64,000 bases of DNA from NCBI GenBank assembly GCA_963833425.1, contig CAWHXP010000013.1, positions 32,001 to 96,000 of the forward strand, in the 5' to 3' direction. This DNA comes from an uncultured Methanosarcinaceae archaeon (GTDB taxonomy: Archaea; Halobacteriota; Methanosarcinia; Methanosarcinales; Methanosarcinaceae). A program made the position numbers and the translations under genes. Of this stretch, positions 44,165 to 51,278 are shown piece by piece. Every line of letters starts with the position of its first letter. Position 1 is the first letter of the stretch. The notes under the pieces were generated by a model that worked only from the letters and a program-made list of their open reading frames with translations, did no database searches and was not told the DNA's origin.

Positions 44165-46162
44165 ATGGAAATGACGTATAAAGCATTCTTTGTATTAATC
44201 AGCATGATTTTATTATCGACAACTGCACTTGCAACATCTACACCCTTGAAATCTGCTGCACAACCGTATTACATAGATCCACAGCATAATTTGTGGCTCA
44301 AGATCAACATGAATGGCAGCACACAACATTTTAATGTTTACAATGCGTCTGGCTATTCTCCCAATGGAGATACAGTTATGTGGGCATTCGATAACTTTAG
44401 CTCAGGCAAGTTAAATACGTCAAAGTGGACAGCTTACAAAGGAGGAAGCAATGACTCAACATTAGATGTACAGAACGGACATCTGGTGTTGTCAGGCTCT
44501 GGTAACACATCTTCTGCAAATGTTGTGCTGAATAAACAATTCACGAACGGCATTGAATTGGCGGTCAATGAAACAATAACAGGGGGTACTCATGACATGG
44601 GTACATTTTCTGATGCTTCTTTTGGTTCCGGAGCACTAGTAGGTGGTCTCAGAGGGGAAGATTGGTGGCACACAAGCTTCAAAGCTGGTGGAGGATCATT
44701 CCAAAGCCAGGGGATACACAAATCAATGATTTGGGTAAATTCAAATGATTCGAATGTTGTGATGCCCACTCCTGGTATCACGCTAAGTGATTACATCAAA
44801 GGAAATATTTCACATACATTGGCATATAGTTATGACGTTTCTGGTAATGCAAATATGTATATTCTAAATGTAACTCAAAATCGTCTACCCTTATCTATAC
44901 CTGATCCATATGGGTATAACCAGTTCAATCACCCATCTATCTATTTCAATGAGACTGGAGTATTTGGTCACAAATGGTGGATGTTTATTACACCATATGC
45001 ATATTCGAAAGGTACATATGAAAATGCATGTTTGTATTATTCTGATGATGGACTAATTTGGTATGTACCGCCAGGAGTGAAAAATCCCATTGGAACACCA
45101 ATAGAATCTGAATATAAACCAAATGCTTATGGTTGTGATCCTTACGGTTCTGATCCATATGGTTCTGATCCTTATGGTGCTGATCCACATGGTTCTGATC
45201 CATACGGTTCTGATTCTCATCTCATATATAATCCTAATATCGGAAAATTCATGTGCTACTATGTAATTGGGGATGTAATTGGTGATGTAACCGTGGAAGA
45301 CCCAAAAGTTAAAACATATGATGGGATTACTGTTTCACCTGAAATAAATGTCACAGCCCATGGTGTATCACCAGCTGTTCTGTATGATAAAGCCACAAGA
45401 ACGTATTACATGTGGATTGTTGATATCGATCCTCAACCGCATGTAATATACAGATACACATCCACAGATGGTGTACATTTTGGTAATAAGCAAGCTGTGA
45501 GCCAATCGAGCAATTTCCAAACCTGGCATATGAATACTATGAATTATCCCGGAAACTCAACAATATATGCATTATTTACATTGATGACTAATAAAAAGGA
45601 TTTCATCAAAGATTTACATATCGCAACCGCAAATAATTACACCGATAATTTCACAGTTCAAAGTTCACCACTTCTAAAAGTCAAGGATTCGTCATCTGCA
45701 ACACATAAAGAAGTCCTATTATATCGGAGTGCAGGTATATTTAGCGATGATGGAAACATCTTGAAACTCTGGATACCTGCACAAGATACTAATGGAGTCT
45801 GGACTGTATTTTACACACAAGCAATGAAGGAAAATGGTGTCTGGGCAGTCGCAAATTTCACAACTCTGCGTGCACCTCTTATGACAGTCCAAAACACACA
45901 ATATCTCTATACTCCGAAGCATTGGATGCTATCACAAGGCGATTCCCCAAAAAGCCATGGAGTCAAAAGAGAAATCAGTGAAGTTTGGGGATACAAAACA
46001 GGTCACACACCAAAAACAATAGTAAAAAATATGGGAGAATACACTCAAATTGATATTGCACCAATAGATTTACAAAACGTTTCCGATTACCAGGTGATGG
46101 TCCCTTCTAGTATGCTTAACTTGTCATCTCAAAACGATTCTCTGGACATTGAGCGTGCTTAA
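44165..46162 (+). CDS. Secreted/surface protein with beta-propeller glycoside-hydrolase-like domain
   Basis: Signal peptide (ending ...TTALA); HPSI, WMFITPY, EN.CLYYSDDGLIW, SPAV, STDGVHF (Asp-box-like), WHM, LYRS. Confidence 0.8.
   Translation: MEMTYKAFFVLISMILLSTTALATSTPLKSAAQPYYIDPQHNLWLKINMNGSTQHFNVYNASGYSPNGDTVMWAFDNFSSGKLNTSKWTAYKGGSNDSTLDVQNGHLVLSGSGNTSSANVVLNKQFTNGIELAVNETITGGTHDMGTFSDASFGSGALVGGLRGEDWWHTSFKAGGGSFQSQGIHKSMIWVNSNDSNVVMPTPGITLSDYIKGNISHTLAYSYDVSGNANMYILNVTQNRLPLSIPDPYGYNQFNHPSIYFNETGVFGHKWWMFITPYAYSKGTYENACLYYSDDGLIWYVPPGVKNPIGTPIESEYKPNAYGCDPYGSDPYGSDPYGADPHGSDPYGSDSHLIYNPNIGKFMCYYVIGDVIGDVTVEDPKVKTYDGITVSPEINVTAHGVSPAVLYDKATRTYYMWIVDIDPQPHVIYRYTSTDGVHFGNKQAVSQSSNFQTWHMNTMNYPGNSTIYALFTLMTNKKDFIKDLHIATANNYTDNFTVQSSPLLKVKDSSSATHKEVLLYRSAGIFSDDGNILKLWIPAQDTNGVWTVFYTQAMKENGVWAVANFTTLRAPLMTVQNTQYLYTPKHWMLSQGDSPKSHGVKREISEVWGYKTGHTPKTIVKNMGEYTQIDIAPIDLQNVSDYQVMVPSSMLNLSSQNDSLDIERA
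45128..45217 (+). repeat. Six 15-bp coding tandem repeats encoding (Y/H)G(S/C/A)DP
   Basis: YGCDP YGSDP YGSDP YGADP HGSDP YGSDS. Confidence 0.95.
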
Positions 46163-46689: not shown

Positions 46690-47420
46690 ATTTTTCTTAA
46701 AATCGTGGATCTCATCGCGAATTTCATTCTATTGTATCCTTTCAGTCAAATTCCTTATCCAATTATCTACAAGGGCTGCTATTAACTGAAATTCAAGAAT
46801 ATCAAGGCTTTCAATTCAAAGTTCTCAGAAATCACGCACTGTTTTCTAAGACCTTCAGGGTAAAACTGGTGTTCTTACATTCATCTTTTTTGTTTTCTTC
46901 GCCATGAAGTTTGATTTAATTTCTCTTAGATATGCCGGAGAATCGTGTTTGAGAGAGTTAAAACGAGTTCATTAACAATCTTTTATAAGGTAACTGCAGT
47001 ATCTATCTCAAAGAAAAAAATTCTCTTCCAAATCTATATTTAAGCTGAAATCAACATTTCCAAATTGTATATCAGAAAAATATTCTCAACAAGTTTTTCA
47101 AGTTATGTTGAGAAAGCATCTGTGTCTCTTTATCTGACTTCTTGTAGCTCCTCATGAATAAAAGCTATAGATATCACTCTGTGTTGAATTTCCCTGATAT
47201 AACCAAAAGATAATTCGTGATAATATGGATAATTTCCTTTTTGCAAAAATGTTCAATATTATCCAGAATTTCGTCTGCCTTTTATGCTTCAAAATATTTT
47301 GGACTGTTGCTTCTATTCGAATAGGGATATTTTGTTATCAAAAATAACTTCAATTTGCTCATTGGCTATTCTTTCTTCTCTATTGGCTAAAATGCTCTTA
47401 TGAGCACTGTTATAAGACCC
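46690..47420 (-). pseudogene. Sensor histidine kinase (HisKA_2/HATPase) pseudogene
   Basis: REIQHRVISIAFIHEEL, LEKLVEN, SLNIDLEENFF, DTAV, IVNELV.NSLKH, FQLIAALVD; many frameshifts. Confidence 0.8.
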
Positions 47421-47499
47421 TTTTTATAAAGACCTTTCAATGGCATAAGCCATAGCTTTGACTATATAATTTGATGAGGTGAAAAATAATTGAAGGTTA

Positions 47500-48486
47500 A
47501 GATCTGTAGAAACCCTCAATTTGATGCAAATTAGTTCTATAATTTTTTTGTTTATGTTGTATACTATTAATTTAATTTTAATCTCTTTTGTTTGATAACG
47601 GAATTTCCTTACCCATAGTGTTTCTCCTAATTTTCTTTTAACTACGAAAAATATTGTCTCCACAATATTTCTTTGATTATATTTAATTCTGTCAAAGACC
47701 AGGTTCAACTGTTTTCTATATTTACCTCTTATTTTCTTTCTTTTTCTCTCTTACAGGTATAATTGAATCTGCTTTGATTTCTTCTCTAATTATAGAATGT
47801 ATTTTTTCTGAATCGTATCGTTTATCCATTACATAACAATCAGACTTTCTAATCTTATTTGATTGTCTTATCAGAGCATTTGCATGTTTGATTTCATGGT
47901 CTGTTTTTTGACTAATTTCCCATCCCAATATTATCTTTTTACTTGTGCCCACTGACATTGAAATTCTCAGGAAGCTTCCCTGTTCTTCTGGAATAATAAT
48001 AACTTGCATATGAACTCGTAAATCCTGTTGCATCAATCGCTGCAACAGAGACATTTACTCCATATGAGTAAAACAGCTTTAGAATCCTTGACAGAAGAGG
48101 GTTAAACAGAGAGGAAGGAATCCTAGTTACAAACTTTTGTAGGGTAGTGAAATATGGAATCTTTTCAAGAGCAAGTTTTTCTTTTATATCGCTCATAAGG
48201 TCAATAAGTTCTACAAAATCTCGATAGTCTGTACTAATATACTCTTTCAATAAAACCAGTGAAAGAAGCTGATGCTGAGTATAAACGTGTTTTGAATACT
48301 TGCAGGAATAAAGCTTCAGTCTCGAAGACTGAACAGTTTCAAGACTAGTATCAACAAATTTAATGTACTTTTAAACTTCAATATTGAATGTTCCTTCGTT
48401 TTTAGCGAAAAAAATAAGAAGAATATTATAACTGAATAGTTATAATACTGGTGTAAAAGTTCAATTTAGAACATTTCTGCAGAGCC
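47500..48486 (-). mobile_element. IS5-family element, second copy of the 19153-20151 element
   Basis: Near-identical sequence; mutated TIRs; TSD GAAGGTTA/AAAGGTTA; 11-bp and 2-bp deletions. Confidence 0.92.
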
Positions 48487-48798
48487 AAAGGTTAAAAAAT
48501 AAATATTATTGTACAGAGTTGGCTTCTTACTATCAGTAGCAGTTAAATCAGAAAGTGCGAACCATAGGATGGTAAAAGTAGCGCCAATTCTGGCTGCAGC
48601 TTCTACATTTTACCATATATTTCACATCCTTTTTCCAATTTCTGATACATCAACTAAATATCACATTGTTAGTAATTAATTTATAGTTAATTGGAATCAA
48701 AATATACTAAATACATTTCTATATATTTAATAAACGCATATTGAATATTCTGGAAAATATGACAGAAATCTTAAAAATAAATTAGATAGGTATAAAGC

Positions 48799-50724
48799 AT
48801 GAACAAGGTTAACAAGGAGACGGAAGACAATTCTGAATATCCTAAAAAATTTGAAAATCTAGAAATGAAGGAGATAAAGTCTATAAGTGAAAAACTTTCC
48901 GAAATGCACTGTGATATCAAAACAGTGATGGAATATTCCAACAGGCTTCGTTTCGAAACTGCTCTTGAAAGTTCAAGGCAGGAATATTCACATGCTCTTC
49001 TAAATCATCTTTTTGAAGATATAGAGACTGGACTTGAACGAAATATGGCGAAAAGATGTCCTGAAAAAGGAAATTGCATTTCTAAGTTCACGGCTATTCT
49101 ACAGCACAATGGAAGGATTCTAAAAAATATTAAAATAGATGAGGCCCTTATTTCGGACAACAGAAATAAGTTGGATGAACTGAAATGCAGAGCTCCTTAT
49201 AGGAAATGTGAGCGGTGCTTTTCCGAAGTTTCGAATCTCTTCATAAAACAAATAAACCTCATGCATTCCATAAAGAGTTATAAAATTGATCAAGGACAGA
49301 AGCCCGATATTTCAGCCCTAGAAACCAACGTGGTTATGAACGAAATCCTTGAGCCGGTCTCAAATAAACAGCGCTTGAAAATTTTAAAAGCTGTCGCCAT
49401 CGAACCGAAAAGCTTCTCCGCTTTTTCCAAACTTACGGGTCTTATAGCAGGGAACTTACACTTTCATCTCCAGAAACTCATGGACTGCGAGCTAATTCTG
49501 CAACAACATGATAGAGGAAATTATATGATCACTGAAAAAGGGCTCAAAATCCTGCAGAGTTTAAACGAGATATATTTTTCACTCCAATATTTCCCACAGC
49601 AAATATATCATTCTAATTTGTTTGAGGAATCGAAAAAGGAAAAATTAACTAGCGAATCGGAGATAGTAACACTTACTGAATCTCTAAAAAAAATGGCTCT
49701 GACCCGTGGGGCCGCCAAAGTAGGCATTGCAACGACAAAAAATCTTTTAGGCGGCCCTCCTTCCACCGACCTGACCTATGTGTTGCCAGAAGCAAAATCT
49801 GCTATCTGTTTTGCCCTAGCTTTTGATCAGAACCTTATAGACCCTTATTTCAGAAAACTGGATTACGAATCCCTTGAAATGAATAAGGTATTGACCACTA
49901 TCCTTGCCGATGGAATAGCTCTTGAAATTGCAAATTTTTTGCAGCAATCTGGATTCAAAGCTGCCCCTCAGGCTGCAAATTTCGTTTACCGGAAGGGTAC
50001 AGAAAATTGGCTGTTGGATATGCATCCTCCTATTTCCCACAGGTATCTGGCAGCACGCTCTGGGATAGGACATCTAGGATATTCAGGAAATATTATTACA
50101 AAGGAATATGGATCCGCGATTGTCTTGGCCACAGTCGTAACGGACGCTGAACTTATTCCAACAGACCCCTTGTCAGAAGAAGAAAACTATTGTGACGAAT
50201 GCAAGCTTTGCCTTTCAGTATGTTTATCTGGATACGTAGACCCTGTTGAGAAAATTTCTGTAACCCTGGGTGGAAAGGAGTTTAGTTATGGGAAGCGAAG
50301 AAGCAATAGTCGCGGTTTACTTGTATGTATGGGACTTACAGGTCTGAGTGCCTCAGGAAAATGGTCCACCTGGTCTCCTGGGCGCTTTAAAATTCCCGAA
50401 AAAGATGAAGAGTTCATTTCTGCAATAGCTACTGCCACACAAGCGTATCAAGAAAGACCGAAGTTAAAAGGCGGATTTTTTGTACCCATAATGTCAGGAT
50501 GCATGATGGAATATCCCTGTTCTAGCTGCCAGTTAGTCTGTCACCCTGACAAAGAAGTTCGAACAGCAAGATACAAGATGCTAATAGAAAGCGGAGTGGT
50601 CATACAAGAACTTGATGGAACTCGTAGAGTAGTATCCCCAGAAGAAGCAAAAGAGTATCTCAACTCCATACCTCTAGAAAAAAGAAAACTATATGAATCT
50701 ATTTCTGCGGGGGAATCGGTCTAA
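48799..50724 (+). CDS. Fusion of an Msr/ArsR-type winged-helix regulator with a QueG/reductive-dehalogenase-like Fe-S (cobalamin) domain
   Basis: aa ~1-263: CPEKGNC, CERC, LEPVSNKQRL..L...TGL..GNL.FHLQKL...Y.ITEKG. aa ~290-641: GAAKVGIA, SHRYLAARSGIG..G.SG, G..IVL..VVTDAEL, CDECKLCLSVC, CSSCQLVC. Confidence 0.88.
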   Translation: MNKVNKETEDNSEYPKKFENLEMKEIKSISEKLSEMHCDIKTVMEYSNRLRFETALESSRQEYSHALLNHLFEDIETGLERNMAKRCPEKGNCISKFTAILQHNGRILKNIKIDEALISDNRNKLDELKCRAPYRKCERCFSEVSNLFIKQINLMHSIKSYKIDQGQKPDISALETNVVMNEILEPVSNKQRLKILKAVAIEPKSFSAFSKLTGLIAGNLHFHLQKLMDCELILQQHDRGNYMITEKGLKILQSLNEIYFSLQYFPQQIYHSNLFEESKKEKLTSESEIVTLTESLKKMALTRGAAKVGIATTKNLLGGPPSTDLTYVLPEAKSAICFALAFDQNLIDPYFRKLDYESLEMNKVLTTILADGIALEIANFLQQSGFKAAPQAANFVYRKGTENWLLDMHPPISHRYLAARSGIGHLGYSGNIITKEYGSAIVLATVVTDAELIPTDPLSEEENYCDECKLCLSVCLSGYVDPVEKISVTLGGKEFSYGKRRSNSRGLLVCMGLTGLSASGKWSTWSPGRFKIPEKDEEFISAIATATQAYQERPKLKGGFFVPIMSGCMMEYPCSSCQLVCHPDKEVRTARYKMLIESGVVIQELDGTRRVVSPEEAKEYLNSIPLEKRKLYESISAGESV

Positions 50725-51163: not shown

Positions 51164-51165
51164 TA

Positions 51166-51278
51166 AATTTCAATATTGAATTTTCCTTCTTTTTTAGCGG
51201 AAAATAAGAAGAATATTATAACTAAATAATTATAATATTATAGTGTAAAAATTCAATTTAGAGCATTTCTACAAAGCC
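51166..51278 (-). mobile_element. Solo left end of the 19153-type IS5
   Basis: Matches ~48375-48486, ends ATTTCTACAAAGCC. Confidence 0.85.

Follow-up and report, generated by a model that had tools for sequence, protein, structure and literature searches.

In-frame fusion of an ArsR-type regulator and an RdhA/QueG-fold domain in an uncultured Methanosarcinaceae archaeon

The window analysed here is a stretch of 64,000 nucleotides (nt) from contig CAWHXP010000013.1 (C13; positions 32,001 to 96,000, forward strand) of the genome of an uncultured Methanosarcinaceae archaeon (GCA_963833425.1; G000, 4.07 Mb, 80% complete; G, C, L and P numbers denote genomes, contigs, loci and proteins, respectively). 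Its subject is the gene P0001 (Table 1), a single uninterrupted reading frame of 641 amino acids (aa) in which an ArsR-type regulator is followed by a short linker and a domain of the RdhA/QueG fold. As a preliminary description made from the letters alone had noted, the frame is open among decaying neighbours, with insertion-sequence (IS) relics and gene fragments surrounding it. In simulations of neutral drift, 4 of 500 runs left the frame intact at a distance of 0.05 substitutions per site, and none of 500 did so at either 0.10 or 0.136; since the simulated frames were nearly always broken, the survival of this one goes beyond chance.

The N-terminal half, as judged from its sequence, belongs to an uncharacterised methanogen family of ArsR-type proteins in which four cysteines are conserved and the winged helix is C-terminal; stand-alone members are distributed across the whole order, and the fusion is the sole uninterrupted member found in G000. 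The winged helix (residues 182-258) was matched above cut-off by the Pfam profiles HTH_45 (29.9 bits) and HTH_5 (PF01022, 24.6 bits, cut-off 22), and its fold matched Rv0081, HlyU, NolR, CadC and BigR at Z scores of 12-13. The two cysteine pairs, which had been pointed out beforehand together with the winged helix, are Cys87-x5-Cys93 and Cys137-x2-Cys140; the four positions are occupied by cysteine in 118, 118, 116 and 118 of 118 close relatives, respectively, Cys87, Cys93 and Cys140 are invariant among 36 sequences from several genera, and all four are retained in the five intact fusion copies. The structure model of this helical domain reached a predicted local distance difference test score (pLDDT) of 81.9 and a predicted template modelling score of 0.43, and the fold search of the N-terminal half gave little information on it because the matches were taken up by the winged helix. 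The four cysteines are predicted to form a metal, Fe-S or thiol sensing site. Genes beside the family encode FMN_red (which we take to be an iron-sulfur flavoprotein), CMD, flavodoxin, MTH865, redoxin, DsrE and DUF2284 proteins, and these redox neighbours suggest oxidant or electrophile stress as the signal; corrinoid methyltransferase genes were represented by none of 50 scanned neighbour proteins, which are part of all neighbours.

The regulator had been labelled Msr-type, and this label was withdrawn. P0001 gave no match to PF08350, presumably the same as DUF1724, and its similarity to the PF08350 proteins of 20 loci was confined to the helix-turn-helix (HTH; best E 6e-4). The Msr regulators (MsrA-H) are likewise winged-helix regulators of Methanosarcina of about 260 aa, but in them the HTH precedes DUF1724 (bioRxiv 10.1101/2021.03.04.434021, in its accessible part; for their roles see the available portions of PMC3419521 and PMC11218639), whereas here the Cys-rich helical domain comes before the HTH. 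As the protein is not an Msr, the link to corrinoid methyltransferase genes drawn in the preliminary description falls with the label. MsvR is a cysteine-based, autoregulatory, ArsR-like methanogen protein which carries an N-terminal HTH and a V4R domain, binds TTCG-N7-9-CGAA and, in Methanothermobacter, lies divergent from an oxidative-stress operon (accessible text of PMC3729527). Its domain order, sensor domain and palindrome are all unlike those of the present regulator, since the HTH order is reversed and no V4R domain was found in P0001 by Pfam search; by analogy it is nevertheless the best functional counterpart of the unfused regulator, which likely works in a similar way.

The C-terminal half (residues 280-641) adopts the RdhA/QueG fold, its model showing the nitroreductase-like cobalamin fold and the ferredoxin domain of the class III cobalamin/[4Fe-4S] oxidoreductases (RdhA/QueG), and is predicted from this model to be a cobalamin/[4Fe-4S] reductase, yet it can be called neither a QueG proper nor an RdhA of the usual type. 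The motifs CxxCxxCxxxC and CxxCxxxC lie at residues 465-475 and 574-581, respectively; the QueG profile TIGR00276 gave 43.6 bits (cut-off 200) and the RdhA profile TIGR02486 gave 32 bits (cut-off 160.35). With the structure model (pLDDT 93.6), the top matches in both Foldseek and VIA-align were RdhA and QueG, in agreement with the class named beforehand: NpRdhA (4ras; Z 17.0, root-mean-square deviation 4.1 Å, 240 aligned), PceA (Z 16.4, 3.2 Å, 218 aligned) and QueG (Z 15.1, 3.4 Å, 218 aligned), the next-ranked match being MMACHC (Z 9.0). Nine near-invariant cysteines, one beyond the needs of two clusters, are found across the family in alignment A1; its stand-alone members, 44-81% identical, occur in Methanosarcina, Methanococcus and Desulfobacterota-labelled records, and databases label them QueG. 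The hallmarks of RdhA are an active-site Tyr/Lys/Arg set, a twin-arginine translocation (Tat) signal and an RdhB anchor. The present half resembles the reductive dehalogenases (NpRdhA 4ras, PceA 4uqu, 8q4h) in fold and in both ferredoxin-type Cys motifs, and differs from them in its low identity (13-23%), its length of about 360 aa, the absence of a visible signal peptide, the ninth invariant cysteine and the fused regulator; at the starts of the stand-alone enzymes no twin-arginine leader was visible by eye. For base-off cobalamin binding no sequence motif exists, according to the accessible part of PMC4646009.

A true QueG role, which had already been thought unlikely, was rejected because TIGR00276 stays far under its cut-off, the D-Y-H motif and Asp134 of QueG are missing, and no QueA was found in the genomes tested. 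The fold is that of QueG (5d0a, 5d6s), Arg415 aligns with QueG Arg141, and the QueG Cys pattern, as given in the available text of PMC5175355, is also present. D-Y-H, however, is aligned with N-K-V, QueG Asp134 lies opposite Met408 (the adjacent Asp407 is partly conserved, 37 of 54), and the profile alignment stops ahead of the HEAT part. QueA was detected in 0 of 5 genomes, four of them at least 90% complete, with 9 of 14 controls positive, and QueF (TIGR03138) in 0 of 5.

The junction can be read directly by comparison with unfused genes. Stand-alone regulators read ...CCA CTG CAG and continue for about 15 further codons to a stop, the stand-alone enzyme genes of L009 and L021 begin, with their upstream sequence, as AAT TTG CTT GAG GAG TCG AAA ATG GAA GAA, and the fusion reads CCA CAG CAA ATA TAT CAT TCT AAT TTG TTT GAG GAA TCG AAA AAG GAA. 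Since the fusion and the stand-alone gene starts match, the crossover is placed on sequence grounds after codon 268, residues 269-279 are translated leader including GAGGA, and Lys280 is the old start codon; a linker made of captured leader and ending at a former start codon indicates that two genes were joined. The preliminary description was right that the linker holds no Met (there is none between residues 243 and 299), but its argument from this against two joined genes does not stand, Lys280 being the old start. Across 16 junction-bearing copies codon 280 encodes Lys in 14 and Gln in one, and is ATG in one (L071). This one common junction points to a single origin of the fusion. Trees built from the two halves have poor resolution and conflict in places, with some enzyme halves clustering with stand-alone genes, and the conflict suggests gene conversion. 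Synonymous distances are about 0.1-0.47 among the copies and 0.22-0.38 among orthologs of the same genomes, and from this resemblance the fusion is dated to about the radiation of the clade; it is young and restricted to one clade.

Some part of the fused protein is matched in every one of the 59 genomes of the genus, presumably Methanosarcina from the names of close relatives, and full-length fusions amount to at least five copies in three of them (among the best 150 of 334 matches), namely one in G000, two in G045 (one stops at codon 628) and two in G049; broken junction-bearing copies were observed in the same three genomes and in G044 and G021. The 16 copies that were excised comprise five of full length, eight broken or re-split, two ending just past the linker and one continuing into PAS. 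Further full-length fusions, of which eight compared were mutually 76-93% identical, occur in protein collections and metagenomes, so the two-domain protein first described has full-length homologs. The regulator domain was present in 13 of 1249 candidates of 352-1122 aa (59-84% identical to that of this copy), 12 of which continue into the enzyme and one into PAS. Outside the genus, the best 150 of about 600 matches from 229 genomes of the order contained no full-length fusion, with at most five candidates scored per genome; a 696-aa open frame in G158 was rejected as two separate genes. Separate regulator and enzyme genes lie no more than 3 kb apart in at least eight genomes, enzyme first in G004, G018, G025, G032, G047, G054 and G056 and divergently in G044, and a regulator-then-enzyme tandem of separate genes occurs in another genus (G158, L098); adjacent separate genes, which the preliminary description had regarded as speaking against its reading, were found in most relatives. 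An assembly artefact was ruled out by the full-length homologs and by junction-spanning contigs, the junction being covered by contigs of related strains in 4 of 4 public runs, and fusion by stop loss was ruled out by the distribution and the junction anatomy. Junction-crossing contigs in the RNA libraries X7 and X10 of a single study are no demonstration of transcription, and the 19 public runs, all containing less than 0.2 of the sequence words, give no habitat assignment.

The copies have about 2.3 kb in common, together with upstream remnants of a sensor kinase and of the start of a secreted protein, and occupy unrelated sites; synteny with the window is confined to L043, a re-split copy. 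The ends of the duplicated block vary among copies, and neither terminal repeats nor target duplications were evident by eye in flank alignments, no dedicated repeat search having been run. A one-base deletion at codon 289, common to L043, L044, L067 and L072 (P0122-P0135), leaves a regulator of 289-291 aa, which is unbroken in L043, L044 and L067; the enzyme half is decayed in L043 and L067 and severed beside an IS in L044, and both halves are broken in L072. Further frameshifts in the regulator and the enzyme number 0 and 6 in L043 and 0 and 3 in L067, respectively, and all nine would fall in the enzyme part with a probability of about 0.002 by hand arithmetic. The linker is also where eight protein clusters of 282-291 aa terminate.

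A 35-bp palindrome, TTGGACTATAC-N13-GTATAGTCCAA, with a spacer of 12 or 13 nt, lies about 60-80 nt ahead of the stand-alone enzyme genes and is followed in their promoters by TGCCGATYAAGTATAT, a likely B recognition element/TATA element. Examples are found at L051:7960 and 9349 and in L031 (G000:C3:435322). Regulator promoters carry the same palindrome/TATA cassette reversed, and the site therefore sits just after the regulator's own TATA. In known archaeal promoters the position of a site follows a rule that separates activation from repression; by analogy, the palindrome position likely means activation of the enzyme target and repression of the regulator itself. The best match lies at -102 to -105 in all nine fusion-type promoters, at no less than 7.8 bits in seven, and the promoter of this fusion scored 8.8 bits at 48697, a value attained by 0.4% of 1777 upstream regions of G000. 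In three of five complete genomes the pattern matches only enzyme promoters. The palindrome is regarded as a candidate operator of the regulator family, and its presence before enzyme genes, with a weaker copy in the fusion promoter, suggests a regulator fused to its own target, the enzyme gene being likely its former one. A sigma-70 promoter scan is uninformative for archaea.

This copy departs from the conserved enzyme positions only by C506G, which is private, and G511M, which is shared. Codon 506 is GGT in the assembled window and Cys in all 54 other rows of alignment A1, confirming the suspected loss of a conserved cysteine in SRGLLVC; residue 511 is Gly in most of the enzyme family, and Met is common to one fusion subclade. 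In QueG the lone Cys214 ligates the cluster adjoining cobalamin (PMC5175355, accessible part). By motif order Cys506 is likely its counterpart, and Cys506Gly would likely weaken the cluster nearest cobalamin, so that the enzyme half of this copy is likely impaired; Cys510 could serve as a pocket thiol or as a substitute cluster ligand. In the regulator half Cys87, Cys93, Cys137 and Cys140 are retained, and the clade's R216I and G217A fall where the recognition helix is predicted to begin. An intact stand-alone enzyme gene with palindrome is located on C3 of G000.

Omega (the ratio of nonsynonymous to synonymous rates, dN/dS) was estimated by a custom GY94-type branch model, and all values are possibly lowered by gene conversion and base-composition drift. 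For the enzyme half it was 0.078 in the background, 0.66 on internal fusion branches, 0.28 on intact tips (p = 9e-21 versus 1; p = 3e-14 versus background) and 0.26 on broken tips, a set that counts L033, which has a stand-alone tail and is not fusion-derived; on the branch of this copy it was 0.30 (below 1, p = 3e-6). For the regulator half the values were 0.108 in the background, 0.65 on intact tips (p = 0.012 versus 1) and 0.60 on re-split tips. Housekeeping gene pairs of the clade, two of which resemble paralogs, gave 0.03-0.27 in nine of ten cases and 0.95 in one. Of 91 conserved positions in the enzyme, intact copies depart at 1-3 and clear pseudogenes at 20; of 52 in the regulator, they depart at 2-7 and 14, respectively. 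The linker (pairwise dN/dS 0.16-1.25) is without sign of special constraint. Selection maintains the fusion frame, though relaxed relative to the background.

The explanation favoured, to which an even chance is assigned, is a recent in-frame fusion of regulator and enzyme, by which an autoregulated hybrid senses through its own four cysteines and the enzyme is tethered and partly dispensable. The stand-alone regulator of most Methanosarcina would bind TTGGACTATAC-N13-GTATAGTCCAA, activating the enzyme gene from a site just upstream of its TATA and repressing itself from a site just downstream of its own TATA, with oxidant or electrophile stress as the likely signal to judge from the family's neighbours. 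A single recombination, between regulator codon 268 and a position 33 nt ahead of the enzyme start, would have created the junction and removed the enzyme promoter and palindrome, and the enzyme start codon would afterwards have mutated to Lys; the enzyme would now be produced solely within the hybrid, driven by the regulator's promoter. The block would have been copied to several sites, where copies were subsequently kept, re-split or lost. In G000 control by the hybrid would extend to the intact stand-alone enzyme gene of C3, the hybrid's own enzyme half probably being impaired by Cys506Gly through the cobalamin-proximal cluster.

Several observations weigh against this explanation. The palindrome matrix was trained on the enzyme promoters themselves, the pattern is without any match in two of the five complete genomes, and genome-wide hits of at least 14 bits in G000 number 7, against 0, 6 and 3 in shuffles, a total close to chance. 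With a fixed 13-nt spacer five of six further enzyme promoters scored below zero, scores above 7 bits were reached by only two of 22 neighbouring redox genes, and most stand-alone regulator promoters scored low; the palindrome might belong to another regulator. G000 being 80% complete, a stand-alone regulator may be missing from the assembly. The regulator-half omega of 0.65 is barely below 1 and the enzyme half, at 0.28, is held more tightly, the opposite of what a dispensable passenger would show; R216I and G217A, moreover, change near-invariant helix residues in the entire clade.

These last points also speak for an alternative, judged doubtful, in which the enzyme is the selected function and the regulator half is carried in frame as a substitute start and promoter, its DNA binding no longer useful. 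E238D and D241N join R216I and G217A at conserved regulator positions, and in G045 and G049 (76% and 79% complete) no enzyme copy other than the fusions was found uninterrupted. Yet every intact copy retains the four cysteines and the helix core, where 14 of the 52 conserved positions are lost in the pseudogene L033, the palindrome is retained in fusion promoters, regulator-only derivatives preserve their reading frame, and G000 has an intact stand-alone enzyme while its fused copy lost Cys506. That the fusion is a neutral chimera in a repeat-rich, decaying lineage, with its apparent constraint coming from recent copying and from gene conversion by functional copies, is quite improbable. The unrelated sites with gene relics upstream, the predominance of broken copies, the near-equal omega of broken and intact tips (0.26 and 0.28) and the disagreement of the half trees, with enzyme halves grouping with stand-alone genes, would fit it; but full-length copies only 76-93% identical are still open, drift left the frame intact in 0 of 500 runs at the distance of this branch, and the enzyme-half omega on that branch lies below 1. 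Nor can conversion maintain the junction, because no unfused donor exists.

A further alternative, close to what was first proposed for this gene and in our opinion unlikely, takes the hybrid as a one-component sensor in evolution, in which the regulator's binding to DNA depends on the cobalamin/Fe-S state of the enzyme half or on a substrate bound there. It would be a transcription factor caught forming, its RdhA-fold cobalamin/[4Fe-4S] domain recruited as a switch and its catalyst turned into a receptor by G511M/I and C506G; within that same unlikely reading the ligand would be the corrinoid redox state or an organohalide-like substrate. Intact copies retain 88-90 of 91 conserved enzyme positions at an omega of 0.28, the internal branches with their higher omega (0.66) share changes such as G511M/I and ICLIPG to VPIMSG in a stretch that probably lines the substrate pocket, L045/P0120 carries PAS repeats instead of the enzyme from almost the same point, and the loss of the enzyme start codon enforces the fusion. 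The regulator, however, owns a conserved Cys site and functions unfused in nearly all relatives, the linker is accidental leader with the unconstrained dN/dS given above, and 11 of the 16 copies with the junction have lost their full length; since G511 is retained in several full-length fusions, G511M/I is not required.

The remaining observations concern particular copies, stand-alone enzymes and the surroundings of the fused gene (Table 1). L045:6299-8293 (G049:C36) encodes P0120 (665 aa), with regulator, linker and about 25 enzyme residues followed by PAS repeats; this second swap of domains took place at the same position, and the Cys domain carries an internal deletion. An intact fusion copy at L038:10140-14571 lies next to an integrase gene and a DNA polymerase A-like gene, possibly in an integrated element. 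One housekeeping site holds a decayed regulator in L033 (G000:C2) and an intact enzyme gene in L041 (G021:C35). The stand-alone enzyme gene of L068 (G049:C63:16434-17486) has a single in-gene break, namely codon 437, which is TAG in frame; in Methanosarcina an amber codon may be read through with pyrrolysine. In L049, L101 and L103 the stand-alone enzyme gene terminates an operon which from its appearance we take to be rnf-like, and a DUF2284 gene adjoins it in L049 and L101. At L047:9336-10076 and L048:8265-8696 the enzyme gene is followed by another QueG-like gene, shorter and of 25-26% identity, in one cluster with the enzyme, DUF2284 and regulator genes. Proteins of 727-836 aa (P0301, P0310, P0312, P0317, P0322 and others) apparently hold several tandem QueG-like units; among 21 of 150 scanned, such relatives contained QueG-like or ferredoxin units more than once and lacked an HTH. 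In the window, a 117-bp fragment of the end of the upstream IS relic (51164-51278) lies directly downstream of the fusion, and 44165-46162 encodes a likely secreted protein of 665 aa with short tandem DPYGS-type repeats and a weak DUF2341 match alone.

Table 1. Features of the fused gene and its upstream region, in window coordinates
Feature	Position	Strand	Remark
Sensor-kinase gene relic	47196..47500	-	In most copies of the duplicated block; presumed identity from an KEIHHRIKNNLQV-like motif
IS relic	47503..48486	-	Interrupts the common upstream block; 28 copies >800 nt in G000
Predicted autoregulatory operator region	48680..48731	+	Likely TATA box (48680-48685), then weak family palindrome (48697-48731)
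Fused gene P0001	48799..50724	+	641 aa; ArsR-type regulator, linker, RdhA/QueG-fold domain
Helical N-terminal domain	48799..49341	+	Residues 1-181; conserved Cys 87, 93, 137, 140; putative role
ArsR/SmtB-type winged helix	49342..49572	+	Residues 182-258; clade-wide R216I and G217A
Linker	49603..49638	+	5' leader of the enzyme gene, through the former start codon
GAGGA	49624-49628	+	Likely former ribosome-binding site, in linker
Former enzyme start codon	49636-49638	+	Now AAG (Lys280)
Predicted cobalamin/2x[4Fe-4S] oxidoreductase half	49636..50724	+	Cys motifs 50191-50223 and 50518-50541
Gly506, Cys510, Met511	50314..50331	+	Private Cys loss; invariant ninth Cys; Met511

DNA-binding and enzyme or cobalamin domains are united in one chain in BirA, NadR, PutA and the B12 photoreceptor CarH, which are old and stable, with coupling shown, CarH having another B12 fold. 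Compared with these, the present fusion is young, multi-copy and frequently undone. Literature searches, with most subscription journals outside their coverage, returned no regulator fused to an RdhA/QueG-fold domain and nothing relevant on either the enzyme family or the regulator family.

The history of a gene fusion can here be followed base by base, through leader capture, start loss, block copying, re-splitting and the PAS swap. The fusion also points to an uncharacterised set of regulator, candidate operator and enzyme in Methanosarcina, represented in M. acetivorans by the stand-alone regulator Q8TSP5 and the stand-alone enzyme WP_048064942.1. The family of the enzyme, which goes under the wrong name QueG and has a ninth invariant cysteine, is present in methanogens and in Desulfobacterota-type anaerobes; further class III families are expected, according to the available text of PMC4646009. 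If the cobalamin domain does gate DNA binding, this would be a new use of the cofactor fold.

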